A stretch of DNA of 64,000 bases from Antedon mediterranea (taxonomy: Eukaryota > Animalia > Echinodermata), in assembly GCF_964355755.1 (NCBI RefSeq), contig NC_092676.1:28290871-28354870 (forward strand). Reading direction: 5' to 3'. This document shows positions 1,077 through 59,800 of the stretch, one piece after another. How positions within the stretch are numbered: the stretch's first letter is position 1; every line of letters begins with the position of its first letter. Made by a program: the position numbers and the translations under genes. The notes beneath the pieces are model-generated. The model did not search any database. It saw only the letters and a list, made by a program, of their open reading frames with translations, and was not told the DNA's origin.

Positions 1077-1151
1077 ATGGCACCTCATAATCCTGTTACT
1101 GCTACTTATTATATGTCTGGTGAGGAAAATTACAAGCTTACAACTTACAAT
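1077..1151 (+). pseudogene. EEP subtype A 5' fragment (25 codons) truncated by a repeat element
   Basis: Encodes MAPHNPVTATYYMSGEENYKLTTYN, then switches abruptly to the ~365-bp tandem array. Confidence 0.8.
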
Positions 1152-2872
1152 AACAACAAACCACATAAATCTATTGGTAATAACATTTTGATAATTTTTT
1201 AATATATAGCAATTAAACAGTTTATATACTACTTATTGGTTCCTAGAAATGCAAAATATGTTGACTAAATTCAAAGTTATTAGCAAAAATGTTACCCCTT
1301 ACCCCATAATTTTTAATAATTACAAATTACTATTACGGTCACAATTCCTAATATTATTACACAGGTTTATTTGTTTTTAATCTTTAACTTCAATTTCTTG
1401 TCCATTGTCTTTATAGGTTTAAAAGAAAAGTTAGATTTGGTGTATTTTTGCGTTAAATATTGAAACTTTATTAATGTTACATTTGGACGAAATTGCATTT
1501 CTTTAAATGTTCAATGACCTTTTGACCTACAATGAAGTCAATATATGTTACGTTTTATTTTTTCATAATGAATATAACAATTAGGCAACCTACGCAGTAC
1601 ATATTAATACCAAAAATATGCAAATGTGATCACTAAATCCAAAGTTATTAGGAAAAATGTAACCCCTTACCCTATAATTGTTAATAATACATTACTATTA
1701 ACAGACAGAATGTCCTCATAAATTCACAGAATATTTGTTTGTTAAATTCAATTTTCTTATTTATTGTGTCTATAGGTTTAAGTTTGCATAAGATATCTTG
1801 TATTTTTGTGTTTAAAATTGAAATGTATAAGCTAATTTAGAAGAAATTGCATTTTTTATTAAAGGTCATTGACCTTTGACCTCTAAAAGACATCAATAGA
1901 TGTTCGATTCATTTTTAAAAGCATATTACAATAAAGAAATCCATACACTACATACTGATAACAAGAAAATGTAAATCTGTTCACGAAATCTTAAGTTATT
2001 TGCAAAAACGTTACCCCCTACCCCATTATTGTCAAAGATTACTAATGACGAAAAAATTCTTTACAATGCACAGCATATTCAATTTTGAAAAAATGTTAAC
2101 TTCAATTTTCTTATTTATTGTGTCTATAGGTTTAAGAAAACATTAGTTTGCATAAGATATCTTGTATTTTTGTGTTTAAAATTTAAATTTATAAGCTAAT
2201 TTAGAAGAAATTGCATTTTTTATTAAAGGTCAGTGACCTTTTGACCTCTAAAGATGTCAATAAATGCGGGATTCAATTTTAAAAAGTATATTACAATTAG
2301 GAAATCTATACACTACATACTGATAGCAAGAAAATGCAAATCTGTTAACTAAATTGTAAGTTATTCGCAAAAATGTTACCCCCTACCCCATAATTGTAAC
2401 TGATTACAAATTACTAAAAACAACAAATTTCTTCATAATACACAGCATATTCATATTTTGTTAATCTTTAACTTCAATTTTCTTGTTTATTGGGTCTATA
2501 TGTTCATGAAAACATCAGTTTGCATAACATCTATTGTATTTTTTTTGTTAAAAACTGAAAGTTATAAGTTAATATTAGACAAAAAATCATTTTTTACTAA
2601 AGTTCAATGACCTTCTGACCTCTAATGGCGTCAATAATTGTTGGATTTACTTAGAAAAATATATTACACTTAAGCAGTCTATACACTACATATTGATACC
2701 AAGAAAATGCAAATCTGTTCATTAAATCCCGAGTTATTAGCAAAAGTGTTACCCCCTACCCCAAAATTTTGTGATGCATATTTTCCGTAGGCGGTGTTAT
2801 ATAATCCTAAAAAATGACTATTAAGCTGTACAATTGGCATTGCTATCATGGATTTCTGAAAAGTATACATAT
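1152..2872. repeat. Array of ~365-bp diverged tandem units
   Basis: GTTACCCC(C/T)TACCC recurs near 1291, 1660, 2010, 2375 and 2748, with TGACCTTTGACCT and ATGCAAAT-like motifs in the units. Confidence 0.85.
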
Positions 2873-2979
2873 AGGCTAGTCAATCTAGCAAAAAAAACAG
2901 CCCAAAGTGAAACAAATTGCAAACAGAGATTTTCCTTTTTTAAATGGTCATATATGATGAGGAGATCAAAATTTGAGCA

Positions 2980-3900
2980 TCACACCTCTGTCACTCATCC
3001 CGATGATATGCAAATTAGCTTAAATATGCAAATTAGGGTGAAATTACAAGGTTACCATATCTCAAAAACTACTAGTCCGAGAGAGTTGATTTTTTCACTG
3101 ATCTATTGAAAATGTATATATTTATATTTACTCTAATGAAACATTTTACGAAAAAATGACCGGAAGTATAACATTTGACCTTCGACCCCATTTCTCAATG
3201 TTTGCATATACAATGTGACTAAAATGTCTGTAGAGACTTTATTTTGCCCTCAAATGACCCAGACATAGGTTCCTAATAGCCAGCATAGGATCACTTTGTA
3301 ATTCCCAAAATCACACCTTTGTCACACACCTCGAAAGTATGCAAATTAGTAGTACAATTTAAATAAAATATGCAAATAAGGGGAAAAAATTACAGTTGTC
3401 CTATATCTCGAAAACCACTAATGCTAGAGAGCTGATTTTTTCACAGCCGTATTCAAAGTGTACATATTTCTATTTGCTCCAATGAAACATTTTACAAAAA
3501 ATTGACCGGAAGTATGACATTTGACCCTCGACCCCATTTCTCAATATTGCATATATAAATGAAACTAAAATGTCTGTAGAGACTTTGTTTTGCCCTCAAA
3601 TGACTCCGATACAGGTTTCTAATAGCCAACATAGGACTGTTTAGTAGATCTCAAAATCACACCTGTATCACTCACCTCCAAAGTATGCAAATTATTAGTA
3701 CAAGTTACATGAAATATGCAAATTAGAGGATGAAATTAAAGGTTCCTATATATCGAAAACCACTAAGGCTAGAGAGTTGATTTTTTCAATAACTTTGTTC
3801 AGAATCTACATATTTATATTTACTCTAATGAAACATTTTACGAAAAAATGACCGGAAATACAACAATTGACCCTCGACCCCATTTATTAATGTTTGCATA
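2980..3900. repeat. ~346-bp tandem repeats within a unit-1-specific insertion (~2873-4830)
   Basis: GACCGGAA(G/A)TA at ~3158, 3504 and 3851; recurrent TATGCAAATTA. Confidence 0.75.
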
Positions 3901-6900
3901 CATAACTTTTAATTATACCAATTTCAAAATATGCAGAAAATAAATAATTTTTAACCAGGTTTGAGCTCCAGATACAAAATTAACAGTGATCTTGTGAGAA
4001 GTAAGGGAGAAGATGACATTGCATTTTATTGGGGGCTCATTTAATTTACCTGTATAATCACATACTGTGCTAAGAGTATTTTACAAAGAATGAAACACAA
4101 ATTTTGTATAGACATCTATTGCAATTTAATGATGGAAATATAAAAACGTTTAACAAGTATTCACTGGCTTGTGGTGTACAATGTAATGAAAAGCATCGTA
4201 GACTTTGCTTTTCCCACCTCTTGATATTTATGGTAATTTTTATATATATCTGAACACATCCAGATCATCTGCAAAAACAGTAAATGCACTTAAAGTTACA
4301 GTAATTGCTTATTTCTGTGTTTTCGCATTTTGTAAACCATCTAAAATGATTAATTAAAAAACACATTACAAAACAATCATAATCATTTCTACAATACACG
4401 GTAACAACAACTACATTTTAAATGTAAATTTACCATTAAATATCCTGATTAAATGTTGATCTTGTTCACCAAATATCTGGTGAAAAAATTCCTCCATCTC
4501 GTTGGGGAATGCGGCGGGAGAAAGAGAGAGAGAAAAACAGTCAATCGGCGGCGGCCGGCAGGCCCGGGCGCGCGCGATGACGATAAAAATTATGAAATGC
4601 TTGCATTTGATTGGCTGCCTCGATCAAAAGTTTTCACTCCCGGAGTCGAGTGGCGAGTGTTTACAGTTCGAGCGGGAATACATTCACACTCGTTGAAGGA
4701 TTGGTACGTTTTATGCTTAATAATTATGGCAGTCGCTCAAATTGGAGTGGATTACCACTCATTTAAGAGTGAACATCAGTTCACTCTAAATTTGGAGTGG
4801 AAATATCACTCGTTTACATTAAGAGAGTATATATTATTATTTATTAGCTGATTTTGCATCTACATATTTCGTTGTGTCATTCATGTGGTTGGTACATTTA
4901 AAGAATTGTGCCTGTGCCTCTGGAATAAATATTATATGTATACATTCACATACTAATCGTATACACAATTGCTTATTATTGACTGTCTAAGCAAATAAGC
5001 AAAGTAAAAATATTTCAAACAAATTACTATAACGCACTCAGTCAATCTTAAATGGCGGGTACCTCAATCTGACGATAAGAGAATTTACTCTTCCCTGGTT
5101 AAGCCTAAGTTTTGTTGAGTAATTAGTAGATTTAAACTCTTATTATTCAACCATGTAGAATACCTGATTTTTAATGTTGTATAGGTTTTGAGTAACAAGC
5201 AGATTTACACTTTTCAACACTGGCGGCTTACAGACTTTTTTCGTTTTCTTTCATTGTGAATTTAATTCTTTGCAATAGGCACTTAGGCCTACATATTTCA
5301 ATGTTTTGTAAAATTTAGGTGGTTGGTAATTGCATTTTAATATAGCTACGTAAAAACTAATGGTGACGTGTCTGTTGTCTTGGTAGAGTAAATAAAATGT
5401 ATTTGTGGATGTTCGTATGTTTCTTTTTTAATTCGTCCGGTACCCATGATTAATGTTGCAAAGCTGCACTATACTAGCCAACGAAGCTGCACTTGCCAAT
5501 CTATCTATATGGAATATTGATAGCCCAAGTAACACCGAAATTGATCATTTAAGGAAGAGCAATTAGTTATGTAAATGAATACATGATAAAAAGTTTAAAT
5601 TGTACAACACATGCTGTAATGGTACCTAACATACTTATAGCCTATACTTTGTCCTTTTTCTTTTACTATAACACATGATAAAATGTCAAAACACAATTTA
5701 TCACAATAAAAAAAGAAAGATCAAGATATTGATTGAAAAGAAATATAAATACCGGTAACCAACATAGAGATACTAAAGCTACTAGTCACATCTATTCCGT
5801 TTAACAAACAGAAGACGGTGCAGTCTGAACAAATAGTAATTCAAAGCAAAAAATTAAATTGGCTGTCAGACAATGGTTTTGGTTAAAATTAGACGTTTCT
5901 TTTCTCTGTTTATAAGTGAAATAATAATTTTTTTTTTTTTTTTACAGAAGTGAATAGCTTTATTAAAACTGCAAAATTACCTATTTAAAGACAATACATC
6001 TTTAATTATTGTTCTTTCTTCAGAAATAGTTATTTTTGTTTAACAATCAGTAGTAAACATTTTGTTTGACGTGAATATATAGTCCGGCGTACTGTACAGA
6101 ACAAAAATATAATCATAAACTAAACTATAGTAGTGTACTGCGAGTTTATTGAACAAGATTTTACAGATTACATGCATCTCTGTATTAGCAAATGTTTTCA
6201 TAGACTCTCCTCTCCCAGACTTTGGGATTTGTAATTTGAGCATGACCCGTCCGAGTTTACAAAATCCCAAAACTGTCAGCCTTAGAACTCTAGCTTCCCC
6301 TTGAAATAGCCTCTGAATGAGATGGGAATATTAGCTGACAAAGCCGCGGCGAAAAAAAAAGATTTAACGGCAGATTTATATCCTCGTCCGATCTATTTAA
6401 TTGATACATTTAGCCCTAGTAAAATGTAATATCGAACTATGTATTTCTATTAATTATACGCTGACTATAACATTCAACGCAATATGTTCTTAAGCTTTCA
6501 GTAAACAGAGAGAGCCTACTCTCTGTGTGAATGTGTCTTAGCAGGAGTACATTTTTAAGTCATCATGAACAAGTACATTAATTGTTTAATAATGTTGGGC
6601 TAGTAGTCTATATAAAAACCATACTGTTGTCTTGCCATTTCCAAGAAATTATGTTTAAAAACAATTTATTAGAAAAACTGTTTACAACTGTGTTACTGTA
6701 TATAACAGAACAGAATGTTTGGAGAGAGAGAGACTCGTTCATTATTATAATGTAGCGTCTTTGGTCATCATTTTGTATATAAAGTATTTGTATGATAACC
6801 AAGAATAAATAGAATAAAATAAGTTATATATAGTTGATAGATATCATAGCAATTTGGTTGTATATTTCTGGTAAAAGTATTATTTTTAGCAATGTGATAA

Positions 6901-8376
6901 CAAATCTACTAGCTTCAACATCTATTATTAAAAATAGCTTATCATTTTCTTAAGCAAAATGCCAGATCATTGTAATTTGTATAATAAGTGAAAATATCCA
7001 GTTGTGAAAAACATTCCACCACAGAATGGTACCAGCATGACAAATCTATGAACTTCACAAATAATATTATTTTATATGATAACAATTTCTCCATGGTTAC
7101 ATATGGTCCAGAATTTGCTTTACTGGGTTATTAATGGGTGATGGTTCAGCGTTTGCTACTACGGTATATTTCAAAAATATAAACACATTGATCCGGTCTT
7201 TTCGGTCGTGAAATTAGAATAACATTACTAAACACGCAATATCTATAAATATAGATATATCCATATATAGTTACTTTTATCATAGAATAATTGCTATAGT
7301 TGTTTGTAGAAGTTGATACAATGATATCAGGCTGGGACCATCCTGTTCTTCACAACTGGAATACTTTCTTTGTAAACAGTTCGTCTCTGCACACAAATAA
7401 AATTCTCCATGCTTAATCTGACCTATTGTGTTTATTATATTTACTTATAATATCAATTCGTTTTCTTCCAGCAATCCACAGAAAATACTAGCTATCGCAT
7501 TATGTCTCTGAAATCTGCAACATCATGTTGGTTGTTATACACGTCCCAGTATTGCCATTGCATTAGCGTTATTTTATTAAGTTTTGTTATAAAACGCAAT
7601 GTTCTTGAGACACACACAAACACGTACCTTATTTTAAATTTACTACCAAAGATCGTATAGCGCCACGTAGTTTCTTTGCTAATAACCTATTTGCCATAAT
7701 ATCGGATTTGTTTATATAAATTCCAGAAGCACAATTATGATCATTGTATTTTAAGTATATGACGATTGTATTATTCCAAAAAACATGATATTATTGCATT
7801 CAGTTCTTTTTAATTTATAAAGGTATTACACCAAAAGTATATTGTACTGTCTTAATTGTCGTTCGTGTTTCTCAACGCAATTTTATTATATAAATGCTTG
7901 TTTTCACTCTCGATGTATTGTATGAGCTCAGCCCAATATAAGCCTAATAGTAAACGAACTCCTATAGCTACTGTCAATGTTACTGTCTACAAATTGAGTA
8001 GGATCCACTTTGCCTGTAAAAATTAGAGATTTTTTTTATCGGCAAATAAGTACAAATGCTTTTCAAAGCCCCATTTTGACATGCAGGCATATATTTACGG
8101 CAAACATATGCTAAGCCAATTTATACACGACAAAACAGACATAAGCTATTTCTTAACACGAATGGAATTTATTATTAGTTTATAAAGATCGAAGTTTCGA
8201 TAAGTTTAGAGTGTTAATTCATTTTAATACGGTAGGTAGGTCTATACATTTTGAAGAAAAGAAATTTGCTAACCAGTGATAATATTTATGTAAACCTGGG
8301 GATACTGCGCTGAGACGATGATAATAAGCTGATATTATTCTCGACCCAGACATTCTAAACGCATTGTTGCTGTCTT

Positions 8377-8860
8377 TTCTATCGTGAAATTAGAATAACA
8401 TTACTAAACACGCAATATCTAACAATATATGATCTTTTATCATATAGAATAATTGATGATTTTTAGTTCGTAAATTCCATGTTGGTACTGTCCTCGTTGG
8501 AATTTTATTTCACAACTGGAATATTTTATTTGTAAACAGTTCGTTTCTGTACACAATTTAAAGTTTCATGCTTCATCTGACCAATTATGTTATTATATTT
8601 CCTATTATCAACTTGTTCTCATTCAAGACAACAGGCAAATTAAAGAAACTATAGTGTCTTTGAAATCTGCAAAATCATGTTTGTATTTTTATAGACACCG
8701 ACATTTTAGTTTTGTTATAAAATAATAAATGCAAGTTAGATATTCTTTTTTCGTTTTGAATTAAACAAACACACGAATACTTCATTAAAAAAAAATGTCA
8801 TTCAATGCATGATAATCCATGTGACCCATTTATTTTATTAGTTCGAATTAGAAATACATC
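8377..8860 (+). repeat. Locus-specific upstream module (~0.4-0.5 kb), about 12 direct copies
   Basis: TCGTGAAATTAGAATAACA...CACGCAATATCT...TTGTAAACAGTT near 7205, 8377, 13540, 17635, 28470, 29670, 34988, 39047, 40845, 56938, 58084 and (partial) 1-340. Confidence 0.8.
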
Positions 8861-9288: not shown

Positions 9289-10074
9289 ATGGCACCTCAT
9301 AATCCTGTTACTGCTACTTATTATATGTCTGGTGAGGAAAATTACAAGCTTACAACTTACAATTGTGGCGACACAGATCCAGAAAGGGATCGAAAGATAG
9401 AAGAATGTAAACAATCTGATGTCATTTTTTGTCAAGAAATTAATAAAATGACTATTGAATCTTTTAAAAATTACACACCTTTTAAAAATCAGACAGGACA
9501 ATGCTTCACAGCAGTATTAATCTAGAAACCAATAGGGCAGCTTCAAGGCGAAAACAAAATAAATAAGGACAGAAGGTTTCTGGATAGACCCGATGTTCGT
9601 CAATGTACAGTAAAATTGAATGATATGGTTTTAATTTCGTGGCATGGCGACAAAAACATAAATAGAAGGGGACTAAATAGAATTTCACCAAATTATGTTA
9701 AAGAAAGAAAAAAAGAAATGTTGCAAGCTCTTCAAGGATACGCATCTGGTCTAGCAACTGAATACAATTTACTAGTTATCATTGGCGGAAATTTCAACTT
9801 ACCTTCAAAGGATACAAGAAAAGTTATAGACAAGCTGACACCACCATCGAAATATGAACAGTACATTATAAATCCTGCTGATATCCATAACCGTAAAAGT
9901 AATATTGACTACTTTTTCGTTGTGTTCCCAAAATACGGAGTCAGAGATGCAATCGCACTACCGCCACAAAGGGACCACGACGGTGAAGACGCTGTTGATG
10001 AGCTAGCCGAATCTGTGGACGATTGCGTTAAACTAATCTTTATAGCCTATATTGAAATGATTGAATTTGGGTGA
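9289..10074 (+). pseudogene. EEP subtype A pseudogene
   Basis: ORFs 9289-9525 and 9616-10074 share one frame, split by a single TAG (9523-9525; AAG in the intact copy). Catalytic GDFN reads GNFN. Confidence 0.85.
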
Positions 10075-14656: not shown

Positions 14657-15451
14657 ATGGGACCGCATAATCCTGTTTCTGCTACTTGTACGTTGGGCAA
14701 GAACAAATACACACTTACAACTTACAATGCTGGTCAAGACAAAGACGATTACAGAGAGGAGAAAATAAGCGAATGTAAAAAATCTGATATTGTTTTCTTT
14801 CAAGAAGTTAATCAAAATACTATCACATCTTTCAACGACGAGTTTGAATCTTTTAAAAATAAACTGGGAAATGCATACACAGCAGTATTGATTAAAAAAC
14901 ACATTATTGGAGAAAAACAGAAAAGAGATGAGAACAAAAAAATTCCAGCTGTTTGCGAAGATGTTCGTCATTGTACAGTGGAAATGACAAATATGATCGT
15001 TATTTCATGGCACGGTAACCAGATAATAAATAAAAAAGGTACACTAAAAGACCAAAAAAAGGTTCCAAAAGATGCAAAGAAGGTCATATTTAAAGCTCTT
15101 CAGCGTCACGCATTTGACCTCGTAAAGGAATCCAGTTTACCGGTTATCATTGGTGGAGATTTTAATATACCAGTAGACGAACTAACTCAATTAGAGACAT
15201 TACCAGAAGAGTGCGATCATCATTACTTTAAAACTCCACGTAAACTAAATGTCGACGACAATGGGACAATTAGAAGTGATATTGATTTCTTCTATGTAGT
15301 ACTCCCTAATTTACTCGGTATAGCAACCCCATTTCTACCGCATTTTAAAGAGGGAGCGAGTGCATCGCCAAAACAAGATGAAAACGACGATGATGGAATT
15401 ACACGTGGTATGGCAGATGTGAAGCTAGGCGAAGACGAAGCTACCAAATAA
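14657..15451 (+). CDS. Single-ORF EEP-superfamily protein, subtype B (264 aa), apparently circularly permuted
   Basis: Open 264-aa ORF starting at aaaATGG with an in-frame stop upstream (14591). Motifs TTYN, DIVFFQE, ISWHG, PVIIGGDFN, IDFFYV. N-terminal PHNPVSAT; no C-terminal SDH; acidic tail. Confidence 0.85.
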   Translation: MGPHNPVSATCTLGKNKYTLTTYNAGQDKDDYREEKISECKKSDIVFFQEVNQNTITSFNDEFESFKNKLGNAYTAVLIKKHIIGEKQKRDENKKIPAVCEDVRHCTVEMTNMIVISWHGNQIINKKGTLKDQKKVPKDAKKVIFKALQRHAFDLVKESSLPVIIGGDFNIPVDELTQLETLPEECDHHYFKTPRKLNVDDNGTIRSDIDFFYVVLPNLLGIATPFLPHFKEGASASPKQDENDDDGITRGMADVKLGEDEATK

Positions 15452-16570: not shown

Positions 16571-16658
16571 TAAAATAATAAGGAAATAATAACATGAAAA
16601 CAATATTTAAAATATAGGCTTACCCAAAAAGGAAAACAGAATCAACATACAATTCGAA

Positions 16659-19953: not shown

Positions 19954-20028
19954 ATGGCACCTCATAATCCTGTTACTGCTACTTATTATATGTCTGGTGA
20001 GGAAAATTACAAGCTTACAACTTACAAT
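19954..20028 (+). pseudogene. EEP subtype A 5' fragment (25 codons)
   Basis: Same sequence and same breakpoint as 1077-1151. Confidence 0.8.
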
Positions 20029-21728
20029 AACAACAAACCACATAAATCTATTGGTAATAACATTTTGATAATTTTTTAATATATAGCAATTATTATTACG
20101 GTCACAATTCCTAATATTATTACACAGGTTTATTTGTTTTTAATCTTTAACTTCAATTTCTTGTCCATTGTCTTTATAGGTTTAAAAGAAAAGTTAGTTT
20201 TGGTGTATTTTTGCGTTAAATATTGAAACTTTATTAATGTTACATTTGGACGAAATTGCATTTCTTTAAATGTTCAATGACCATTTGACCTACAATGATG
20301 TCAATATATGTTACGTTTTATTTTTTCACAATGAATATAACAATTAGGCAACCTATGCAGTACATATTAATACCAAAAATATGCAAATGTGATCACTAAA
20401 TCCAAAGTTATTAGGAAAATGTAACCCCTTACCCTATAATTGTTAATAATACATTACTATCAACAGACAGAATGTCCTCATAAATTCACAGAATATTTGT
20501 TTGTTAAATTCAATTTTCTTATTTATTGTGTCTATAGGTTTAAGAAAACATTAGTTTGCATAAGATATCTTGTATTTTGTGTTTAAAATTGAAATGTATA
20601 AGCTAATTTAGAAGAAATTGCATTTTTTATTAAAGGTCATTGACCTTTGACCTCTAAAAGACATCAATAGATGTTCGATTCATTTTTTAAAAGCATATTA
20701 CAATAAAAAAATCCATACACTACATACTGATAACAAGAAAATGTAAATCTGTTCACGAAATCTTAAGTTATTTGCAAAAACGTTACCCCCTACCCCATTA
20801 TTGTCAAAGATTACTAATGACGAAAAAATGTCTTTACAATGCACAGCATATTCAATTTTGAAAAAATGTTAACTTCAATTTTCTTATTTATTGTGTCTAT
20901 AGGTTTAAGAAAACATTAGTTTGCATAAGATATCTTGTATTTTTGTGTTTAAAATTGAAATTTATAAGCTAATTTAGAAGAAATTGCATTTTTTATTAAA
21001 GGTCAGTGACCTTTTGACCTCTAAAGATGTCAATAAATGCGGGATTCAATTTTAAAAAGTATATTACAATTAGGAAATCTATACACTACATACTGATAGC
21101 AAGAAAATGCAAATCTGTTAACTAAATTGTAAGTTATTCGCAAAAATGTTACCCCCTACCCCATAATTGTAACTGATTACAAATTACTAAAAACAACAAA
21201 TTTCTTCATAATACACAGCATATTCATATTTTGTTAATCTTTAACTTCAATTTTCTTGTTTATTGGGTCTATATGTTCATGAAAACATCAGTTTGCATAA
21301 CATCTATTGTATTTTTTTTGTTAAAAACTGAAAGTTATAAGTTAATATTAGACAAAAAATCATTTTTTACTAAAGTTCAATGACCTTCTGACCTCTAATG
21401 GCGTCAATAATTGTTGGATTTACTTAGAAAAATATATTACACTTAAGCAGTCTATACACTACATATTGATACCAAGAAAATGCAAATCTGTTCATTAAAT
21501 CCCGAGTTATTAGCAAAAGTGTTACCCCCTACCCCAAAATTTTGTGATGCATATTTTCCGTAGGTGGTGTTATATAATCCTAAAAAAATGACTATTAAGC
21601 TGTACAATTGGCATTGCTATCATGGATTTCTGAAAAGTATACATATTAAGCTTTCCAAAAATGTATTGTAGCATTTGCCACCAATTTGATACTGCTTTCG
21701 CAAAAAACTGGACCTGGCCCATGGACTA
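20029..21728. repeat. ~365-bp tandem-unit element ending CCCATGGACTA (possible non-autonomous DNA transposon)
   Basis: Copy of the 1152 array. The right end CCATGGACTA resembles TAGTCCATGG termini I recall from Academ-like elements; no matching left end is seen. Confidence 0.65.
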
Positions 21729-21731
21729 TAT

Positions 21732-22139
21732 ATGTTGTATACACCACCTTTAACCGAGGCGATACCTGAGCTGATTTTTCGAGACGGCAGCTATCGTATT
21801 TGGCCTGTAAAGCTTAATAATGAAATCATCATTATCTCATGGAATGGCGGATTAGATCAAGTAGGCTCACAACCAGAAAATTTCAGATGTATCCAGACGT
21901 GTGCACTTAACCTTGCAAAGATATGTAATTTGCCAGTTATCATTGGTGGAGACTACAACTTAGAAGCAGACGAAGCCAGAATTAACATGTCGGATCCACC
22001 AGCAGGCTTTGATCGGTACATTCGAAGTCTAGTGAACATCTTTGGCCGTAGAGATAATCATGATTACTTTTATTGTGTGGTCCCAGCGGCTGTGAGAATG
22101 GAATTCAAATGCGAAGGAGCAAGTGCACATCAGAAGTAG
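21732..22139 (+). pseudogene. EEP subtype C, 3' half only
   Basis: RIWPVKL...IISWNG...PVIIGGDYN...HDYFYCV aligns to the second half of subtypes A/B; the 5' part is replaced by a repeat element. Confidence 0.7.
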
Positions 22140-25300: not shown

Positions 25301-25414
25301 CCGCCACTGCTACAACAAGGACGTGATGACGACAATGACGAATTCAAACCGCCACCACCCGATTCTGACAAAACCGAAATTCTAAGAGAACAATTCAAAC
25401 AAATGAAACCTTAA
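25301..25414 (+). pseudogene. EEP subtype D 3'-terminal remnant
   Basis: PPLLQQGRDDDNDEFKPPPPDSDKTEILREQFKQMKP* matches the end of 52996-53847, with a shared 3' flank. Confidence 0.75.
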
Positions 25415-39825: not shown

Positions 39826-40070
39826 ATGGAGGGACGTTTTGTAACACTGTTATTTGCTGTTTTAAGACTTTTAGTTGTTAGTTCAATTGAAGATGACTTA
39901 GGATTTAATGCAAACATTGGTACTATAGCTCTTAGTGAGGGTTCAGCAACAGGCCAGCTAAAATGCTCAGTATCAGAGATGACCAAATATACAATCTCAT
40001 GGTATAGAGAAACAAGAAATGGTGACAGAACAATAATTTTCAGAGATGGAATGCTGATAATGAACAACTT
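39826..40070 (+). pseudogene. Diverged Ig-like exon, 3'-truncated
   Basis: MEGRFVTLLFAVLRLLVVSS...LSEGSATGQLKCSV...ISWYR; deletion after LIMNNL. Confidence 0.6.
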
Positions 40071-42008: not shown

Positions 42009-42083
42009 ATGGCACCTCATAATCCTGTTACTGCTACTTATTATATGTCTGGTGAGGAAAATTACAAGCTTACAACTTACAAT
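42009..42083 (+). pseudogene. EEP subtype A 5' fragment (25 codons)
   Basis: Same sequence and same breakpoint as 1077-1151. Confidence 0.8.
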
Positions 42084-43761: not shown

Positions 43762-43765
43762 TTAA

Positions 43766-46700
43766 GAGTCATTGTCCATAAAAATCAAAGATTTGTTGGC
43801 AGATTGAAAAAAATGGATTTCTCTCAAATTTTCACCATTAATAGGCACTTCAATAAAAAGCATATCTATAACATTCATTTTAATTTTTAGCCTTCGTTGC
43901 CATGACAACAGCTCATTATCCAAATTTTGATGTTTTTGCCATTTTTCAAAGAATTCCTAAAGTGAAAAAGAACAAACTTCGATGACAAATTTGAAGCAAA
44001 CAAACATGCATTATACATTTTCTGTGTTTATTAGTGTAAACAACAAGGTATTTAGTTCCATTTAATACAGAAAAAAAAAAATTCAAATATGTAGTTTGGT
44101 TGATACCATTATTTGAAAAAGGGGTGTTTTTCACAAATATATATTTGTTAAAAGTATACCTCATAAACCTACCTATAACTTCCAAAGTGGTGCTTTTTTA
44201 TCAATGAGGTTTTGCATTTTTATAGTCAAGGGTCGTTGCAATAATAATCAAGAATAAAAAACTGGGGTAAATTTAAGACATGGGTTTTGTGTTGCCAGAA
44301 AAATACGAAAAATAAAAAAAAATACAATAAAAAAAAAACAAAAGCAACATTTAAACATGGCTAATCAAATATAAAAGTTATACATTTGGCATAATATAAT
44401 GCTTCTATAGTCACATGAATAGTTTGAAAAAAATTAAGAATGTGTTGCCAGGTTTATTTCAATTAATTGCCAGAAAAACAGTATTTATATCGAAATATTC
44501 TTGTTTTAAAACTATATACAACGCATAATTTAGAGTAATCAGTTAATTTCGAGGTAAAATGTGTTTCGTATCCGAATCTGATCATCATTTTCATTTACGT
44601 ACCCTGCGCAGTGCATGCGCAATATGTGCGCATCATAGGAATGTGCTCAAATAGTCTAAAATATTTAGATTTCGTCAGAAATTAATTTTATCCATTTTAA
44701 AAATTGTAAATCCGTTGAGTAGTTTTGACAAACACAGACAAATAAACCAAGTTGAATGCATAACGTCCTTGGCGAAAGTAATAAAGAAATGTGTACATTT
44801 AGGCTTATGAATAGGCAAGAAAAACGACTTCAAATAAAAAATATGCGTTGATTGTTAAATAAAAAATAAATTAAAGAAGGTTATGAGCCGATTCCATTAC
44901 GATAACTACATTTCAAACACTACTCTGACAATAGCAGTCCATGACAAATTCCTCTATTCTCTTAATAAAGGGTCTTTTTCGTCGACGATTTATGTCATCT
45001 GTGCTTATATCAAGAAACAAGCAAATCTCTTTCAGTTTAGATAAACTTAATTCAATCAGGTTGTGGGATTTTACCAAATGACACAGGTTAATTGTATCAT
45101 ATACAATTGGATGTTGAAGATTAACTTTTTCTTGAACAAGTCGGTGGAGGTTGTCTATTGTTGATTCTTCCTCTGCAGCTTGAAGACAATCTTCATCTGA
45201 TTCGTCACATGCTTCGGTTTGGTAGAATTTCTTCTTCCGTCTTGATGCTTCTCTAGAAAAGAAGCTTGAAATCTGTACCTCGGTCAAATACTCTGATGGT
45301 TTAAAAAGCTTTTCACCCTTATCATCCTTGGATCTTTTCATATCTTTTTGTACGTCGCCTGCTTCAATCTTTTGTCCGGAATCTTCACCTATTTTGAATT
45401 TCTTTTGAAGGTAAACTTTTTGTTTCTCTGTGAATCTTGTGTTTCTCTTTGTTTTTTTCAAAGCCCAACCCATTGAAAGATGCTTTGATTGTCCCACATT
45501 GGAAGGTATAACAAGCTGTGGAACTGTGCGAGTCTCAGTTGTAAGGTTTTTAGAATAGCCTAATTTTGCTTTGTCAAAAAGTGTTTGGTTCTCTGACCTG
45601 TATTCGTGCTTTCCTGTAACTATGTGTTTTTCTAGCCTACAGAGACTGGCGTAGGACTTAATGCACCCTTGTTCAGGGCAGAAAAACAAGTGATCATTCA
45701 GCAACTCATCATTTGTCTGTATTTGGTCTTGTGCACCAGGTTGAAGACTTTGCTGGATAGTTTCAGAGGATACGTTTGAAGTTGTCATTCTTTTGAAAAC
45801 TCCATCGCTTTTCGGAAGTTCTATACACTCTAACAGTGGGCATTCTTGTATTTTTGTAAAAGTTTCCCACTTTCTGAATTTACCATGTCCGATACCGTAT
45901 GCCCTCCAAACTTTAACTCCCTCACTTGAAAATTCAAAATTATTTAGTAAGCTTATGCCTTCCCACTTGCAAGGTTTCATATTAGTTGACACATTTGAGA
46001 GAGTAGTTACAACGTTCATGTTCTGTCCTTCAGACTCTAATGCATTCTTCATTTGAACACCATCTTCTATGTCATGACCTTCGTTTGAATAAATTCGCAT
46101 TTTGCCTTTAAGTGATGCTGCCTTTCTATCACATGCACCTTTTCCTCCTTGTGGGTCACAAAAGTCTACACCTTTCACAACTACTCCTGTACTTTTAAAA
46201 ATGTCATTTGTTGTAAGTAGAGTGGCCGCACAGTGGTAGCAGCCAGCATTATCTTGCCTAAAATATACAGATGCAAGCTGTGGATTCATGTGTTTTAGAC
46301 GTGAAACAACATCTTTCATTATTGCAGTTACTGCATTGCTGTCCTGAGCGTGTGTTTGGAACACATGAACAAACGTAATCGTTTCAAAATTATTTTGATA
46401 GCGTCGAATTGCAACAGAAATGTGCCAAGAAATTCCTCTTCTTCCGAACCAGTCTGCTTGTGATTCTCGGAATTTTCTCGGCAAAAACTTCATTGCCCAA
46501 TCCTGAATTATCAAAACGTTATTTTCGTCAATCAGTTGCAGGACGTGTTGTTGTCTTTCATCCTGATTGATACATCTCAACTGATGTGATTTCCACAACA
46601 AAACATCGTTGTATGCCTTGTCTATAATTAGTTTTGTTTCTTCAAATTCATCACCATTCATATCTTTGCACTCATGCAACTTGGACTTTAGTTCTTCTAC

Positions 46701-49700
46701 AACATCTTCTAGAATGTCGCAATTCTCACACCTGGCATCATGATTGTGATCACAAGGTTCCGTAAATGCTGTTTCACTTTCATCACTTAGCGCATACTGT
46801 CGACAGTGGTCAGGAACTGTTGACGATTTAGAAATGTGTACCTGGAATTAAATGTATGTATTCATTAATTATTTTCATTCTGAATAAAAAAAGAGAATAG
46901 AAAAGAATAGATATTAATTTTACCTTGTAATCTCCTTTCATGTATCGTTTTGATATTCTGAGAGCATCCTTTTGTTGCCGTGCCCATCTGTTGGACTGAT
47001 CATTTTCAACCAGTGTATTAACGATAGACTCTAGCTCCTCATAGGCTTTGGTACCTGGCAAAAAATATTATAGTATATGACATTTATTTCAGTTAATACA
47101 ATGAACTAAATTATCTTGAAAAAACCAATGTTTTCAAAACCTACCTGCAGCAGTGAAATTATCCAGTCCCTGGAGACTTTTTCGAACTGAAGCACTGCAA
47201 GTATCTAATATTCGGTACAATGTTCTTTCTGAAAGTGGACTAAAATCTAGTTGTTCGCAATATGTACGATATTGCATAATAATGCGCTGAGGAATCATAT
47301 TGCGAATAACATTTGGAACAGTTATACTTTCTCCTGTTGTAAGCTTCAGTTGCTTTTCTCCAAAAGGCATATCTTGAATCAGATGGGCACTTGTAATAAA
47401 AGAAAGAAAATGATCAACTTGTGATAAGTCAACTTCCATTCTACGATAGGTGACTTTTGGAACGACAGCCCCAATACCATGAAGCAGTTGATGGTGGCGC
47501 GCAATATTGTACCTGTATGAAGTAAGGTCAGGTATAAACTCTACAAGATCTTTATAAGAAACCTTGGCTGCCATGATTGAAAGAATTTGACGTCTTGTTG
47601 ACCAATGTGCACTGTTCAAGTAGCATTCAGTGAGTGCTTCCAACATCTCACTGTCACTGGTAGAAATATGCTCCATTGATTTCAAAGTAGTCTGGGCAAG
47701 AATTCCCCATAGTTTCTCAACTTCATGTGGGGCAATAACTTCAAGAATTGCAGAAATTGCAGACTTTGCCTGACGCAAGTGTTCGCGTTGTGTTCGTTCA
47801 GTGGATAATTCCCAGGATCTCTGCATTGTACTAACTTGTTCAGTATGACAGAAGCGAAGAAAGTTATTGAGAAGTTTCTGTGCTGATTTTCTGTTGATGT
47901 GCTGGTTTTCATCCTCTTCACTAACTGCACTAGTAAAATTAGAATTACTTGAACTATCCTCTAAGGAACAGGCACCATTTAGCTCTGATACATCGTCAAT
48001 CTGTATAGAATTTATAACAAATAGAACATTACAAAGGTATTGTAAGTAAAACCAATAATGCTTTTTGATCAGTTCTGTTATTACCCTACAGTACTTACCA
48101 GGGTCAAATCTTTAATACACACTGCCAAAGTGTCAAGTACATCTTCTTCTTTTTCCTCAACTATATCGTCAGATTGTCCATTTTCTTCCGTCTAAAAAAA
48201 TATTGTGTGGTATTTATTATTGCAAATATTACGCATACATTAATTTTATGTTTGTCTCGTAATAATTGTTAGGATGTTTTTTTGTATAGTATCGTTACTT
48301 ACCAGTACCATTGCACTAAAACTTTCAGTCAAGCTGTTGATAGTTGATATTTCTGTTTCTAATTGTTTTCGACAAGCTGTACAAATTCCTAGTAGTAGAA
48401 TAAAATAAACCTGTTGAAAATTAAGGATATGAATCATTCACATTCATCATTCAGACATTTTATAAGAATCTCAATTAAATGTATCTAAATTATTTACTAA
48501 CCTGACCCAACTTCCAGAAAAATGCTTTTGACATTCCATATATGCTGGGATATCTTCTTGTCTATTCCACGTTGTGCCCCTCTTTTTTTTTTATGAGCAG
48601 CCATAGATGCTGGAACAACACATTTAAGCGAATTTCTGCGCCAGCCTATTCCAAAACGATGACGATGAATAGGACAGATGGTCATGGAATTAATATCAGC
48701 ACGATTAGAAAGCTTAACACGTGACAGTATAAGATCGATTTCATCATGTACATCATAGATTTTTAAAAATAAACAATGTGAATGTATATCTTTGCAGCAT
48801 GAGTTTAAGTTGACAATCGTAGATCCTTCCTTAGATGTTGTTGGATTTGGGCCACAGGGAACATCAGAATATTCTTTAAAAGAGCATTCCATTTTATCAA
48901 TGTGACAGTTCTATTAACAAAAATCAAAAAAGTATTTAAATAAATAGATTAATGAGCTTGTCTATATTATTAGATTATACACTAATAATGTTATTGGATA
49001 AAACACTAGGCCTATCTGCTATTTCAAATGGGAATCAGTTTACACTTGTGTTCCTTGATAGCTGGCCATGGCGTAGAGTAGGCCTACTCCATAGTAGGGC
49101 CATCATACATTAGGTCTACTAGCGGATTGATCTAATTATGTGCCTCTGTTTTAGGCTAGGCCTGGAAAAACCCATGAATTCACATGAAGTAATACATTAG
49201 AAAACACCATACATGCATATTCTGACATTTCTTAAATTTGTCCTCAAAATACCTTAATGTAATTTTGGTAACAATGAAAAGACTGTGAACCTTACCTCAG
49301 TAATTATTGAACATCAAGGTATCAAGAAAACATGAGTAAAAATACAGCCTCCTACTTGGAATCAATGCGTCATACTCAAAACATTCATTCAGTTTTAGAA
49401 AAAATTAAGTTCATTTACTACTGTATATTCATTTATATCATCAGTTGAGATGTGTACCTCATCTTAGGTGGCTTTGTGTGTCTTTGACCACAATCTGACA
49501 AGGTCTTAACTTACTTAGGAAAGATGTCCTTCAAGGAAGGTCAAAAACCTCCATGATGACATTTAGTACATAAACAATGTGTGACCTTTCATGATTTGTG
49601 ATTTTTTTGGATGTTTTTTTGTGGTTTATTTTTGGGGGGGGGGAAGAGGGCGGGAGGTGAGGGGAAAGTGGGTGGAGATGGATAGGATCTGGCTAGAGAT

Positions 49701-50523
49701 GGACATATATGAAAGAGGGCTTCAAAATAGAAAAGAGAGATTACAATTTTAAATGCTTTCCAATCCAAATTCTAAAATATATAACATTGAAAATCATAAG
49801 ATAACTGGGAATTACAGAAACTAAAATTACCAATAATGTGTTTTTCTATCACAACGCAACCTAGTGTATATAAATATTAAGTATTGCCATAAGCAATGGG
49901 TTTATAATCAGGTCACCAAAGAAAATAATCATTTTTTCAATTATTACAATTTGTTTTTTTTTAAATAAAAATGCCTATTTTTCTGGCAATACTGCTTGTA
50001 GATATTAAAAATACCCCAGTATTTTATTTTATAAATCACTTATTTAACATTAGAACTACCTATTAGTACGAAATCAGCTTAAAAAAAACACCACTTTGGG
50101 TGTTATAGCATGGTAAAGTAAAGATGTTTTTGACAAATTAAGAAATTCAAAAAACACCCCTTTTTAAATAAATGGTATCTTCCAAAGTATGAAATAAAAA
50201 AAAATAAAAAAATGTGAAATAGACACACAATGCATTGTTATTATACATACATTAATTATTTTTTATAATTAAATGAAAGAAACAATACATATCGTTCATC
50301 AAAACACTACCAATACCCATTTTAAAAAACCTCAAAAAATGACAAAATTTGTCAAAAACACAAATTTGCCCGTTGCCATGGAAATATACGCATGAAATAA
50401 AAAATACTTCATATTTGATTTCTCTCAACACATATATAGCCATGTGCAAAATTTGAAAGAAATCCATTTTTTTGAGTCTGCCACTATTTTTGATATTTCT
50501 TTGATTCTTACAGACAATGGCTC
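43766..50523 (-). mobile_element. Sola3-type DNA transposon, apparently autonomous (6.76 kb)
   Basis: TTAA duplicated at 43762-43765 and 50524-50527 (empty sites near 2821 and 21595). Termini 5'-GAG...CTC-3'. Imperfect TIRs traceable for at least ~540 bp (e.g. GATACCATT..AAAAAGGGGTGTTTT, CCAAAGTGGTG, TTGCCAGAAAAATA and their reverse complements). GAG ends, TTAA target and long TIRs are the described Sola3 hallmarks. Confidence 0.85.
44913..48892 (-). CDS. Sola3 transposase, 6 exons, ~1161 aa
   Basis: Exons 48892-48502, 48388-48303, 48191-48099, 48000-47145, 47054-46924 and 46841-44913, all GT-AG and phase-compatible (3486 nt). Core motifs QDWAMKFLP, QDNAGCYH, GGKGACDR; C2H2-like CPEQGC...H...H; Cys-rich N-terminus. 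Confidence 0.85.
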
Positions 50524-50659
50524 TTAAGCTCCACAATTGGCATTGCTATCATGGATTTCTGAAAAGTATACATATTAAGCTTTCCAAAAATGTATTGTAG
50601 CATTTGCCACCAATTTGATACTGCTTTTGCAAAAAACTGGACCTGGCCCATGGACTATA

Positions 50660-51066
50660 TGTTGTATACATCACCTTTAACCGAGGCGATACCTGAGCTG
50701 ATTTTTCGAGACGGCAGCTATCGTATTTGGCCTGTAAAGCTTAATAATGAAATCATCATTATCTCATGGAATGGCGGATTAGATCAAGTAGGCTCACAAC
50801 CAGAAAATTTCAGATGTATCCAGACGTGTGCACTTAACCTTGCAAAGATATGTAATTTGCCAGTTATCATTGGTGGAGACTACAACTTAGAAGCAGACGA
50901 AGCCAGAATTAACATGTCGGATCCACCAGCAGGCTTTGATTGGTACATTCGAAGTCCAGTGAACATCTTTGGCCGTAGAGATAATCATGATTACTTTTAT
51001 TGTGTGGTCCCAGCGGCTGTGAGAATGGAATTCAAATGCGAAGGAGCAAGTGCACATCAGAAGTAG
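50660..51066 (+). pseudogene. EEP subtype C, 3' half only (duplicate)
   Basis: Near-identical to 21732-22139; the ORF-track start at 50590 lies within repeat sequence. Confidence 0.7.
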
Positions 51067-52995: not shown

Positions 52996-53847
52996 ATGTC
53001 TCCCCCACACAATCCTGTTACTGTTACTTGCAAGGTGAACGGTAAACCATACAATCTTACAACTTACAATGCCGGTGTAAAGAACGACAATGAATCAGCT
53101 GAGTCTAGGTCATGGAAGATAGATGAATGTAAAAAATCAGATATTGTATTTTGTCAAGAATTTACTAAAGATCTGTTGGAAGCTTTTCATGGGTTCAACA
53201 AGTACTATGGCTATATTAATGGATACGTAGCAGTATTGGTAAAGCGTAATCGTCGTAAAAAAATACCAGAACAAGTACCGGCAAATTGGATGGATAAACA
53301 TCTAACAGATCACTTTGGTCGTCATTGTACAGTAAAACTGGATGATATCATTGCTATTTCATAGCACGGTAAACATAAAGTAAATGAACCAAATAGCCCG
53401 CCAGAAGATGTCAACGATTTAAGGATAACGTTTTTTAACAAACTTAGATCATACGCAATTTACTTGGCAAAGAAACACAATTTGCCAGTTATCGTTGGAG
53501 GAGATTTTAACTTCGAAGCAAATGAAGCAATACAACAGTTAAACCAAGATAATCAGGATACCTGTATTCAGTACATCAAGAAACCAAATCAGTTTAGTGG
53601 TCTACATAATTTTGATTATTTTCATGTTGTCGTTCCTACATTCGATGTTGATGGTGAAGCAAAAGAACAACTTATGCCAGAGGAGGAAGAGGAAGAGGAG
53701 GAGGAGGAAGAAAACAATGTACCAGGAATTTTGCCGCCACTGCTACAACAAGGACGTGGTGACGAAAATGACGAATTCAAACCGCCACCACCCGATTCTG
53801 ACAAAACCGAAATTCTAAGAGAACAATTCAAACAAATGAAACCTTAA
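52996..53847 (+). pseudogene. EEP subtype D, single in-frame TAG at the conserved Trp of ISWHG
   Basis: ORFs 52996-53364 and 53464-53847 are in the same frame. Read-through gives MSPPHNPVTVT...TTYN...DIVFCQE...IS*HG...PVIVGGDFN...FDYF, with a poly-E and Pro-rich tail. Confidence 0.8.
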
Positions 53848-56800: not shown

Positions 56801-58796
56801 ATATTATTTTATATGATAACAATTTCTCCATGGTTACATATGGTCCAGAATTTGCTTTACTGGGTTATTAATGGGTGATGGTTCAGCGTTTGCTACTACG
56901 GTATATTTCAAAAATATAAACACATTGCTCCGGTCTTTTCGGTCGTGAAATTAGAATAACATTACTAAACACGCAATATCTAAAAATATAGATATATCCA
57001 TATATAGTTACTTTTATCATAGAATAATTGCTATAGTTGTTTGTAGAAGTTGATACAATGATATCATGCTGGGACCATCCTGTTCTTCACAACTGGAATA
57101 CTTTCTTTGTAAACAGTTCGTCTCTGCACACAAATAAAATTCTCAATGCTTAATCTGACCTATTGTGTTATTATATTTACTTATAATATCAATTCGTTTT
57201 CTTCCAGCAATCCACAGAAAATACTGGCTATCGCATCATTTCTCTGAAATCTGCAACATCATGTTGGTTGTATACACATCCCAGTATTGCCATTGCATTA
57301 GCGTTATTTTATTAAGTTTTGTTATAAAACGCAATGTTCTTGAGACACACACAAATACGTACCTTATTTTAAATTTACTAATAACCAAAGATCGTATAGC
57401 GCCACGTAGTATCTTTGCTAATAACCCATTTGCCATAATATCGGATTTGTTTATATAAATTCCAGAAGCACAATTATGATCATTGAATTTTAAGTCTATG
57501 ACGATTGTATTTTTCCAAAAAACATGTGACTGATTATGATATTATTGCATTCAGTCATTCTTAATTTCTAAAAGTATTACACCAAAAGTATATTGTATAC
57601 TGTCTTAATTGTCGTTCGTGTTTATCAACGCAATTATTTATTATATAATGCTTGTTTTCACTCTCGATGTATTGTATGAGCTCAGCCCAAAAACGTACTC
57701 CTATAGCTACTGTCAATTTTACTGTCTAAAAATTGAGTAGGATCCACTTTGCCTGTATAAATTAGATTTTTTTATCGGCAAATAAGTACAAATGCTTTTC
57801 AAAGCCCCATTTTGACATGCACAGGCATAATTTACTGCAAACTTATGCTAAGCCAAAACGAAATTGGAATTTATTAGTAGTTTTTAAAGATCGTAAGTTT
57901 CATATAAGTGTAGAGTGGTAATTCATTTTAATACGGAGTAGGTCTGTTTCAAAAAAGGGGATTTACTACCCAGTGATAATATTTATGTCAAACCTGTGGA
58001 TACTGCGCTGATATTATTAGGTAATGATAATAAGCTGATATTATTCTCGACCCAGAATTCAAAACACATTGTTGCTCCTGTCTTTTCTATCGTGAAATTA
58101 GAATAACATGCGAATAACACGCAATATCTAAAAATATATGTTCTTTTATCATATAGAATAATTGATGATTTTTAGTTCGTAAATTTCATGCTGGTACTGT
58201 CCTCGTTGGAATTTTATTTCAAAACTGGAATATTTAATTTGTAAACAGTTCGTTTCTGTACACAATTTAAAGTTTCATGCTTCATCTGGCCAATTATGTT
58301 ATTATATTTCCTATTATCAATTTGTTCTCATTCAAGACAACAGGGAAAAAAAGAAACTTAGTGTCTCTGAAATCTGCAAAATCATGTTTGTGTTTTTATA
58401 GACACCGACATTTTAGTTTTGTTATAAAATAATAAATGCAAGTTAGATATTCTTGAGTCTTTCTTAAACAAACACAGCCTGTCAGGTATCTCATTTTACG
58501 AATTTGCCATTCAATGCATGATAATCCATGTGACCCATTTATTTTATTATTTGGATTACGGTAACAGAAGCACATTATTATGATGATTGTAATATAAATG
58601 TCTGTATTTAGAGTTCGAATTAGAAATACATCATGTTTTAATACGGTTCTATATAATCATAGAAGTTAAATTATTTCTTCATGATATAATCTATTCTCTT
58701 ATTTTTAATCAGATATGCTCATACATTTTACTAGATCAGTTATAAGAAGTAATAATGACTTTATTTATAGGCGCAGACTTAGCCGTATTAATTTAA

Positions 58797-58878
58797 CCAA
58801 TGACAAGCGACGGTTGTTTTCGAGCCGTGAAAAGAATCAACACGTAACACTAATACACGAGTCATCACTTGTCATTGG
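58797..58878 (+). promoter_or_regulatory. Inverted CCAAT-box pair upstream of EEP genes
   Basis: CCAATGACAAG...CTTGTCATTGG ending ~175 bp before the ATG; also at 809-908, 9025-9106, ~19697, ~30316, ~41754, and in diverged form at 52718-52791. Confidence 0.5.
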
Positions 58879-59053
58879 TCAAATAGCTAAGTTCCGTAAT
58901 ATCTATACGGTTTGCTTATTGATCCTGCATAAGTATTCATTATTATTCATACAATAAGTAAAATATGAATAGATATTCGTATTCACTTCAACTAACGAGA
59001 GCAAGCAATCGATGAAGGAAAAGCAATAATAGTCTACCTGGCTACATCACAAA

Positions 59054-59800
59054 ATGGCACCTCATAATCCTGTTACTGCTACTTATTATATGTCTGGTGA
59101 GGAAAATTACAAGCTTACAACTTACAATTGTGGCGACACAGATCCAGAAAGAAATCGAAAGATAGAAGAATGTAAAAAATCTAATATTATATTCTGTCAA
59201 GAAATTACAAATAATATGATTGATTTTTTTGAGAATTACACAGCTTTTAAAAATTCTCTGACAGGACAATTCTTTACAGCAATATTAATCAAGAAAACAA
59301 TAGAGCAGTTTCGCGACGGAAAAAAAATAAATGAAGAAAAAAAGTTTCTGGATAGACCCGATGTTCGTCAATGTACTGTAAAACTGAAGGATATGATTTT
59401 AATTTCGTGGCATGGCGACCAGAAAATAAATAGAGAGGGTATAAATAAAATTGTACCAAAATATGTTAAAGACAGAAAGAAAGACATTGTTAAAGCTCTT
59501 CAAGAATACGCATTTGATCTAGCAACTAAAAACAGTTTACCAGTTATCATTGGCGGAGATTTCAACTTAACAGCAAAGGATACCAGAAAAGCTATAGACA
59601 AGCTGACACCACCACAGAACTATGAACAGTTCATTATAAATCCTGCTGATACCCATAAACGACGTGATATTGATTACTTTGTTATTGTGTTCCCAAAATA
59701 CGGAGTCAGAGATGCAATCGCACTACCGCCATTACATCAATCCAGTGAAGACGCCATTGATGAACTAGCCAAATCTGTGGCAGCTACTTCGGTAAAATAA
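59054..59800 (+). CDS. Single-ORF EEP-superfamily protein, subtype A (248 aa), intact
   Basis: MAPHNPVTAT...TTYN...NIIFCQE...ISWHG...PVIIGGDFN...IDYFVIV; uninterrupted ORF. Confidence 0.85.
   Translation: MAPHNPVTATYYMSGEENYKLTTYNCGDTDPERNRKIEECKKSNIIFCQEITNNMIDFFENYTAFKNSLTGQFFTAILIKKTIEQFRDGKKINEEKKFLDRPDVRQCTVKLKDMILISWHGDQKINREGINKIVPKYVKDRKKDIVKALQEYAFDLATKNSLPVIIGGDFNLTAKDTRKAIDKLTPPQNYEQFIINPADTHKRRDIDYFVIVFPKYGVRDAIALPPLHQSSEDAIDELAKSVAATSVK

Follow-up and report, generated by a model that had tools for sequence, protein, structure and literature searches.

A tandem array of EEP genes

The window analysed here is a 64,000-nucleotide stretch of the genome of the echinoderm Antedon mediterranea (RefSeq assembly GCF_964355755.1, contig NC_092676.1, positions 28,290,871–28,354,870, forward strand). 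It is AT-rich (GC fraction 0.27–0.38 per 2 kb) and contains a tandem array of genes of the endonuclease/exonuclease/phosphatase (EEP) superfamily, the fold of DNase I and ExoIII, in which the last catalytic strand has very probably been moved to the front of the chain. Searches in six frames (tblastn and profile) located exactly 12 EEP pieces, all on the forward strand: three intact open reading frames (ORFs; A3, B1 and B2), three stop-interrupted copies (A9289, A30570 and D), three 5′ stubs of 25 codons and three 3′ pieces (C1, C2 and the D tail) (Table 1).

Self-comparison shows three related units of ~21 kb. Each contains an A-type stub followed by an insertion of ~365-bp repeats and then by C sequence, which in unit 1 is reduced to a relic of ~60 bp; in unit 3, a 6758-bp transposon sits within the junction of stub 3 and C2. 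Stub, insertion and C sequence thus form one interrupted locus, and the pieces therefore represent about 10 loci, with 3 of them intact. The initial annotation, made from the letters alone, had counted at least 12 copies or fragments in the repeating order A-fragment/C, D, A, B; the 12 pieces lie where it placed them, but as loci they number about 10, and the order is seen in part, with unit 1 lacking a C body and D, and unit 3 lacking B inside the window. Its other observations on the array, namely the single orientation, the rapid birth-and-death turnover, and the absence of introns and of a signal peptide, are borne out here. Intact and broken members stand side by side with distinct lesions (3 versus 7 loci). 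A9289 and A30570 have the same TAG and, in both, Asn replaces the Asp of motif iv; their breakage therefore predates the duplication of their unit; A30570 later gained a 199-bp insertion. The internal stop is TAG in all three stop-interrupted copies, and recoding of TAG was rejected, as C also terminates in TAG and the A copies have a second lesion.

B1, B2 and A3 hold their motifs in an uninterrupted ORF, although the transposon gene in the same window has GT-AG introns. No signal peptide, as expected of secreted DNase I-type enzymes, was found in the first 40 residues, where the maximum 9-residue hydropathy is 0.3–0.9, compared with 2.94 in a neighbouring immunoglobulin (Ig) fragment. The proteins are members of the EEP superfamily by fold and by five motifs, without the identity of a DNase I, APE1/ExoIII, TDP2 or LINE (long interspersed nuclear element) domain. 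Their assignment as EEPs in the initial annotation stands well beyond chance: B1 matches Pfam PF03372 with an E-value of 7.8e-7, above the cut-off, and fold matches reach Z scores of 15–16; B2 and A3 fall below the Pfam cut-off.

Four sequencing runs of a single sample, from which the assembly may itself derive, contain window sequence, and three of them (X1, X2 and X3) were compared. In X1, the longest contigs reach a depth of 138–150 for sequence with one copy in the window, 252–314 for two copies and 347–402 for three, and X2 and X3 step alike; contig depth is no copy number by itself, and the X1 depth unit (~140–150) may be haploid or diploid. A variant at 14704–14705, where B1 and B2 are the same, has a depth of 142/431 in this sample and suggests a third B gene outside the window. 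These data bear on whether two haplotypes were assembled end to end, with B1/B2 and two A copies being alleles. The flanks differ by only 0.6–1.3%, which is within the range of allelic differences in many invertebrates, the depth unit could be haploid, and no contig spans the array. However, the spacer, the stubs and the full A copies are each present three times in the window, more than two haplotypes of one locus can give, the depths rise in steps, and the third B variant lies outside the window. Such an artefact is thus unlikely; the array is real, and the read-depth check proposed in the initial annotation follows its copy number, although some of its units could be alleles. In a second sample (X5, possibly RNA), a 935-base contig spans the entire A9289 gene and has an intact motif iv (22/26 differences were seen, the stop position not among them), and at least two B variants are present. 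The higher X5 depth over B was not taken as expression, because X5 contigs also extend over intergenic DNA and their depth gives no ranking of genes.

Motif order and the N-terminal histidine strand

Six EEP motifs are set out in passages of PMC12988330: WN on strand 1 (i), QE (ii), H (iii), DXN (iv), D (v) and DH before the last strand (vi). In A3, B1, B2 and D, motifs i–v are in normal order and in register with 12 prokaryotic or viral EEPs and a domain from Lineus longissimus (see below), with Asn (N24/25) in motif i, Glu (E50/55) in motif ii, His in motif iii, Asp-x-Asn in motif iv and Asp in motif v; the exceptions are Asn-x-Asn at motif iv of two A pseudogenes and Asn at motif iii of C. 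The Asp-His of motif vi was not found after motif v in the alignment, where the chains pass the penultimate strand and end in an unconserved tail, nor does a Ser-Asp-His-type exon occur within ~4 kb downstream of the seven stops examined. A Ser-Ala-His close to the end of C was not used as a motif vi relic: the homologous stretch of B is without His, and C is degenerate. The gene starts read Met-x-Pro-His-Asn-Pro-Val followed by a strand, with Pro-His replacing Asp-His. On the forward strand of the window the pattern H-[DN]-P-[VI] occurs nine times, in all nine cases at gene starts, and His-Asn-Pro-Val is invariant across A, B and D despite 37–46% identity among them. A matrix of the terminal strand, derived from 18 distinct canonical EEPs (from the 23/28 loci passing a motif filter), has the N-terminal segment as its top match in 4/4 proteins; with the matrix taken from His onward, 17–41 of 2000 shuffles match the score of that segment.

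The predicted structures have the four-layer α/β sandwich of the EEP fold. The AlphaFold model of B1 was built from 19 rows, of which the canonical ones skip the first ~15 residues, and has a predicted local distance difference test score (pLDDT) of 78.9 and a predicted TM-score (pTM) of 0.82, with all five models at 76–79 and low confidence at residues 221–227. Its residues 1–10 and 11–20 have pLDDT values of 80 and 90, and residues 7–13 are modelled as a strand, though no canonical row spans those columns. The A3 model, from six window rows only, is of lower confidence (pLDDT 66.9, pTM 0.74; the other four models 39–56), with strands at 7–13 and 17–25. In both models the N-terminal segment is an ordered strand adjoining strand 1. 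Foldseek ranks TDP2 first for B1 and A3 (E-value 2e-7 for A3), and VIA-align matched B1 to 38 of 48,161 chains at Z ≥ 8, all of EEP fold, with zebrafish TDP2 at the top (Z 16.2, root-mean-square deviation 3.2, 194 residues aligned). All 38 chains align from residues 11–18 of the B1 model onward (11–19 for A3). At the other end, the alignment with ExoIII covers its residues 1–244, ending before His259 (position as given in an excerpt of PMC4750427), and that with EEPD1 covers 258–505, ending before His531 (position from a passage of PMC12988330). An unmatched, ordered N-terminal strand together with an unmatched His strand in the known EEPs is what permutation gives in a sequential aligner.

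Several observations weigh against this reading. The matching stretch is short: with the full Ser-Asp-His matrix, 46–264 of 2000 shuffles match, the Lineus motif alone is matched by 237–1361 of 3000 shuffles, and the reverse test gave 66/1000. The four proteins are kin, not independent, and thus amount to one moderate test. Moving the segment to the C terminus by script gained only 0.3–3.9 bits, with only A3 reaching the end of the profile; the intact copies have Pro in place of the motif vi Asp; and the placement of His4 in the active site is a prediction. The short motif, the modest statistics and the missing Asp would also suit EEPs that are truncated, without motif vi, and resemble the His strand by chance, as inactive nucleic-acid binders of the kind of EEPD1; an inactive, DNA-binding EEP is on record in a passage of PMC12988330. 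The invariance of His-Asn-Pro-Val across the diverged A, B and D, the ordered strand in both models, a motif iv that is lost in EEPD1 and intact in A3, B1, B2 and D, and a His-to-Asn (motif i) spacing of 20–21 residues, as in a permuted viral EEP (L093, 20 residues), speak for permutation and leave truncation improbable.

Neighbouring copies could instead be joined as exons into a single multi-domain protein, in which the His strand of one copy would complete the domain before it, as the Lineus relative, a tandem EEP–EEP protein, might suggest. Each ORF has its own ATG directly ahead of the segment, its own stop and a downstream AATAAA or ATTAAA; the sequence before the ATG is A-rich with no conserved acceptor, and broken copies lie between intact ones. 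This arrangement is therefore extremely unlikely. Circular permutation, with the last catalytic strand at the front of the chain, remains by far the most credible explanation, and the hint of it in the initial annotation, which had called tandem duplication its standard route, has become the strongest result of the analysis, carried by the motif order, the N-terminal match, the modelled strand at 7–13 and the alignment ranges.

Table 1 Features of the EEP array and its surroundings, in window coordinates.
Feature	Position	Strand	Details
A-type 5′ stub 1, codons 1–25	1077..1151	+	then repeat insertion 1152–~2812 and ~60-bp C relic ~2813–2872
Conserved non-coding element	8356..8700	+	upstream of A, B and stubs
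A-type pseudogene A9289	9289..10074	+	TAG at 9523 (codon 79); motif iv Asn for Asp
B1, intact, 264 aa	14657..15451	+	H4, N24, E50, H119, D168-x-N170, D210
A-type 5′ stub 2	19954..20028	+	then repeat insertion 20029–~21587
C1, degenerate body	21588..22139	+	frameshifts; motif iii His to Asn
D 3′ tail	25301..25414	+	upstream part deleted
A-type pseudogene A30570	30570..31614	+	TAG at 30804, as in A9289; 199-bp insertion
B2, intact, 284 aa	36103..36957	+	
A-type 5′ stub 3	42009..42083	+	then repeat insertion
DNA transposon, 6758 bp	43766..50523	-	inside stub 3/C2 locus; TTAA on both sides; GAG...CTC inverted ends
C2, degenerate body	50528..51066	+	~98% identical to C1
D, full-length	52996..53847	+	one TAG at 53362 (codon 123); catalytic motif residues otherwise kept
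A3, intact, 248 aa	59054..59800	+	H4, N25, E50, H120, D169-x-N171, D207
A3 likely permuted segment	59060..59092	+	residues 3–13: Pro-His-Asn-Pro-Val and strand

Relatives and origin

A search among longer proteins matched 1 of 6665 candidates, LOC135486889 of the ribbon worm Lineus longissimus (XP_064626103.1; E-value 4e-6, 26% identity over 76% of the query, hhalign probability 97%); the number of relatives, one, is a lower bound. It shares with the window genes Q-E, S-W-H-G, L-P-V-I-x-G-G-D-F-N, I-D and an H-D-P-I strand without Asp before His, but differs in having the normal order, with the His strand 34 residues after motif v, and in being a tandem EEP–EEP in one 641-residue chain; it is uncharacterized. 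Its first EEP domain ends in S-H-D-P-I with the catalytic motifs kept, and the second lacks several motifs; the protein represents an animal EEP type not yet described, below the Pfam cut-off. In a tree of the common core (28 rows), the five window rows form a group with both domains of the Lineus protein (95/92), and the permuted viral EEP falls elsewhere. This tree is sparse, its bootstrap had not settled, it was built without TDP2 and LINE rows, C and A30570, and Lineus itself was found with the profile used here.

Other searches gave little. Word-index protein searches matched 0/278 candidates for A3 and 0/254 for B1, and an exact-sequence look-up in a protein collection matched 0/3 intact proteins. 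Locus scans returned, among the matches listed, only distant normal-order EEPs (2/541 metagenome, 1/84 and 1/80 viral, and 5/600 genome candidates); a family-specific pattern had 0 viral matches, phages and plasmids gave no match, and one bacterial phylum gave 0/401 genomes at E ≤ 1e-6 in a scan without a positive control. The PDB sequence search yielded nothing significant (Caenorhabditis elegans TDP2, E-value 0.06). NCBIfam, PHROGs and PADLOC returned weak or unrelated rows, and those for AbiEi and Cas8b were dismissed, each resting on one member. A pattern scan of viral DNA gave 241 loci, one with a permuted EEP, on a giant-virus contig (L093:856-1983). Its His strand lies, as a hairpin, 20 residues before the Asn of motif i, like that of the window genes (20–21); it differs in keeping Asp-His, in having motif v also ahead of strand 1 and in belonging to another EEP subfamily, and is unrelated to the window genes by profile (hhalign 0.3%) and by tree. 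The animal permutation is therefore likely, from these comparisons, to be independent of it.

The possible horizontal or retro-origin raised in the initial annotation found no support in the searches made. Introns are absent, the nearest features in the ESM Atlas belong to bacterial EEP clusters (no sign of transfer as such), and a permuted EEP exists in a giant virus; yet the sole relative found is an animal stand-alone EEP that the window genes join in the tree, L093 is remote by profile, and no close prokaryotic, viral, phage or plasmid match emerged from the collections searched. As regards an origin from a LINE endonuclease, those enzymes match at Z 11–12.4 compared with 16.2 for TDP2, none of the 13 window ORFs scanned matches a reverse transcriptase family, and the EEP ORFs end after 248–284 codons, without the endonuclease–reverse transcriptase fusion in one ORF that marks LINE APE. 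Descent from a virus, a bacterium or a LINE is accordingly very unlikely. An ancestor that was already intronless may have been retroposed. The permutation itself would, with somewhat better than even confidence, have come from a tandem EEP–EEP ancestor, through a new start before the His strand of the first copy and loss of the His strand of the second.

Among characterized enzymes, TDP2 (4fpv, 4fva, 4gew and 4gyz) is the best structural match. Its motifs are given as TWN, LQE, GDXN and SDH in a section of bioRxiv 10.64898/2026.05.29.728668. It shares His at motif iii with the window genes, in which TWN, LQE and GDXN have counterparts; it differs in its low identity (13–20%) and in having the C-terminal SDH, which is out of place in the window genes, and a UBA domain, which they lack. 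Several other EEPs lie within ~1–2 Z of TDP2, and the match is thus no evidence of orthology or substrate. ExoIII/APE1 and the LINE APE endonucleases have the same fold and metal-binding motifs (Z 11–13), but the window genes are permuted, have no reverse transcriptase gene identified alongside, and carry His, not Tyr, at motif iii. As Tyr at this position is tied to cleavage at abasic sites (in a passage of PMC12988330), the His argues against AP-endonuclease activity. Titles and the beginnings of abstracts in the open-access literature yielded nothing on this EEP family or on permuted EEPs; the main text of PMC12988330 does not contain ‘permut’, and the permutation described in an excerpt of PMC2876114 is in another enzyme. 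The EEP fold and the birth-and-death pattern are already known.

Divergence, turnover and proposed role

Coding sequences diverge between units by 7–15%, and their flanks by ~1% (0.6–1.3%). Between B1 and B2, 58/792 coding positions mismatch versus 24/2891 in the flanks (upstream 12/1998, downstream 12/893; P = 6e-22), with synonymous sites alone also raised (P = 5e-5); the first 55 codons are identical and the differences then fall in patches. A3 and A9289 have a synonymous divergence (dS) of 0.16, a non-synonymous divergence (dN) of 0.15 and a spacer divergence of 1.0%. As the excess extends to silent sites, amino-acid selection by itself is insufficient, and exchange with older paralogues or alleles would explain the pattern. 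The first 75 coding bases do not vary in six A-type copies, including the stubs, compared with 40/390 variable columns upstream (P = 0.001; P = 0.03 for the stubs only). It is thus probable that the ~21-kb units were duplicated recently and that patches of the gene bodies were exchanged with older paralogues or alleles behind a constant 5′ end; units would duplicate and decay as bodies swap behind it. An upstream element of ~350 bp, non-coding by its stops and frame-breaking gaps, has 12 forward copies in the window and stands ahead of A, B and the stubs; none was found ahead of D. Extra copies without a gene directly behind them (7180–7542, 17615–17957, 39027–39370 and similar) are possibly promoters of lost copies.

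The same pattern could reflect decay under relaxed selection: segmental duplication in a transposon-rich region would have produced the array incidentally, and it would have no role in defence. The ratio dN/dS is 0.94–1.13 for A3/A9289, A3/A30570 and B1/B2, which fits relaxed as well as diversifying selection, 7 of ~10 loci are broken and there are several insertions, all of which count against a functional, defensive array. Among A, B and D, however, dN/dS is 0.52–0.78 (simple counting), and the catalytic residues are kept across subtypes at a dS of 0.7–0.9; coding divergence exceeds that of the flanks 7- to 16-fold, beyond neutral duplication alone, and the second sample has an A9289-type contig with intact motif iv and further B variants. 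Decay alone is for these reasons an unlikely account.

The window holds further elements. The tandem-repeat insertions (repeats of 346–373 bp) at 1152–2812, 20029–21587 and 42084–43761 go back to a single insertion between stub and C, and a further one lies at 2979–3905. The reverse-strand transposon has a TTAA target duplication and a spliced transposase-like gene (ORFs at 44913–48910) with no clear Pfam match; it looks intact and recent, and we take it to be Sola3-like. The Sola3 target site is not given in the excerpt of PMC5199201. A signal peptide and the first half of an Ig domain follow each B gene (16611–16952, 38033–38329 and 39820–40122, with relics near 16037 and 37437); one of these copies has a stop, and the second half of the Ig domain was not found. 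An open frame at 63763–64000 (+) encodes a transmembrane-like stretch and a tail, the end of which is an acidic dileucine-like motif. The DNA at 62274–62565 resembles that behind the Ig fragments, and a membrane-receptor gene may therefore lie at the end of the window.

On balance, and by a narrow preference, we read the locus as a tandem array of intronless genes for likely permuted EEPs that would be intracellular, Mg2+-dependent phosphodiesterases with nucleic acids or nucleotides as substrates and possibly a role in defence. The chain would open with the His strand, pairing with strand 1. The Glu of motif ii would bind Mg2+, and His4 and the Asp of motif v would complete the site, if EEP chemistry carries over; Asp-x-Asn of motif iv places the water, according to a passage of PMC12988330. 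Judged from their residues, the intact copies are rather likely to be catalytically active despite Pro for the motif vi Asp, and the enzyme, lacking a signal peptide, would act in the cytosol or nucleus, as the initial annotation had supposed. That conflict with viruses or mobile DNA drives the family is a tentative proposal, drawn from the divergence and turnover pattern. A bolder and rather improbable version would have an independently permuted defence enzyme of DNase I/TDP2 fold that works inside the cell and cuts protein-linked or otherwise marked nucleic-acid ends of invaders, or a nucleotide signal, and whose substrate-facing body is diversified by cassette conversion from neighbouring pseudogenes behind a 75-base anchor encoding the moved strand.

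Among the immune arrays of invertebrates, those of sea urchin SpTransformer and the Toll-like receptor clusters evolve fast and have tandem copies, pseudogenes and patchwork exchange. The window array is like them in its tandem copies, pseudogenes and patchwork exchange and differs in encoding an intracellular enzyme fold. Its excess of coding over flank divergence is as expected of a defence gene family, and this mismatch makes a so far unstudied family of enzymes a candidate for cell-autonomous defence in invertebrates. The EEP fold, shared by DNase I, APE1, TDP2, CCR4 and the LINE endonuclease, has been described with a fixed motif order ending in Asp-His. If the permutation is true, a natural animal family whose chain opens with this strand would pass for truncated or be overlooked, and two of the three intact copies do lie under the Pfam cut-off; it would also show where the EEP fold can be opened, with the normal-order Lineus tandem as a model of the intermediate. 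The genes are small and intronless, and these predictions would be easily testable.

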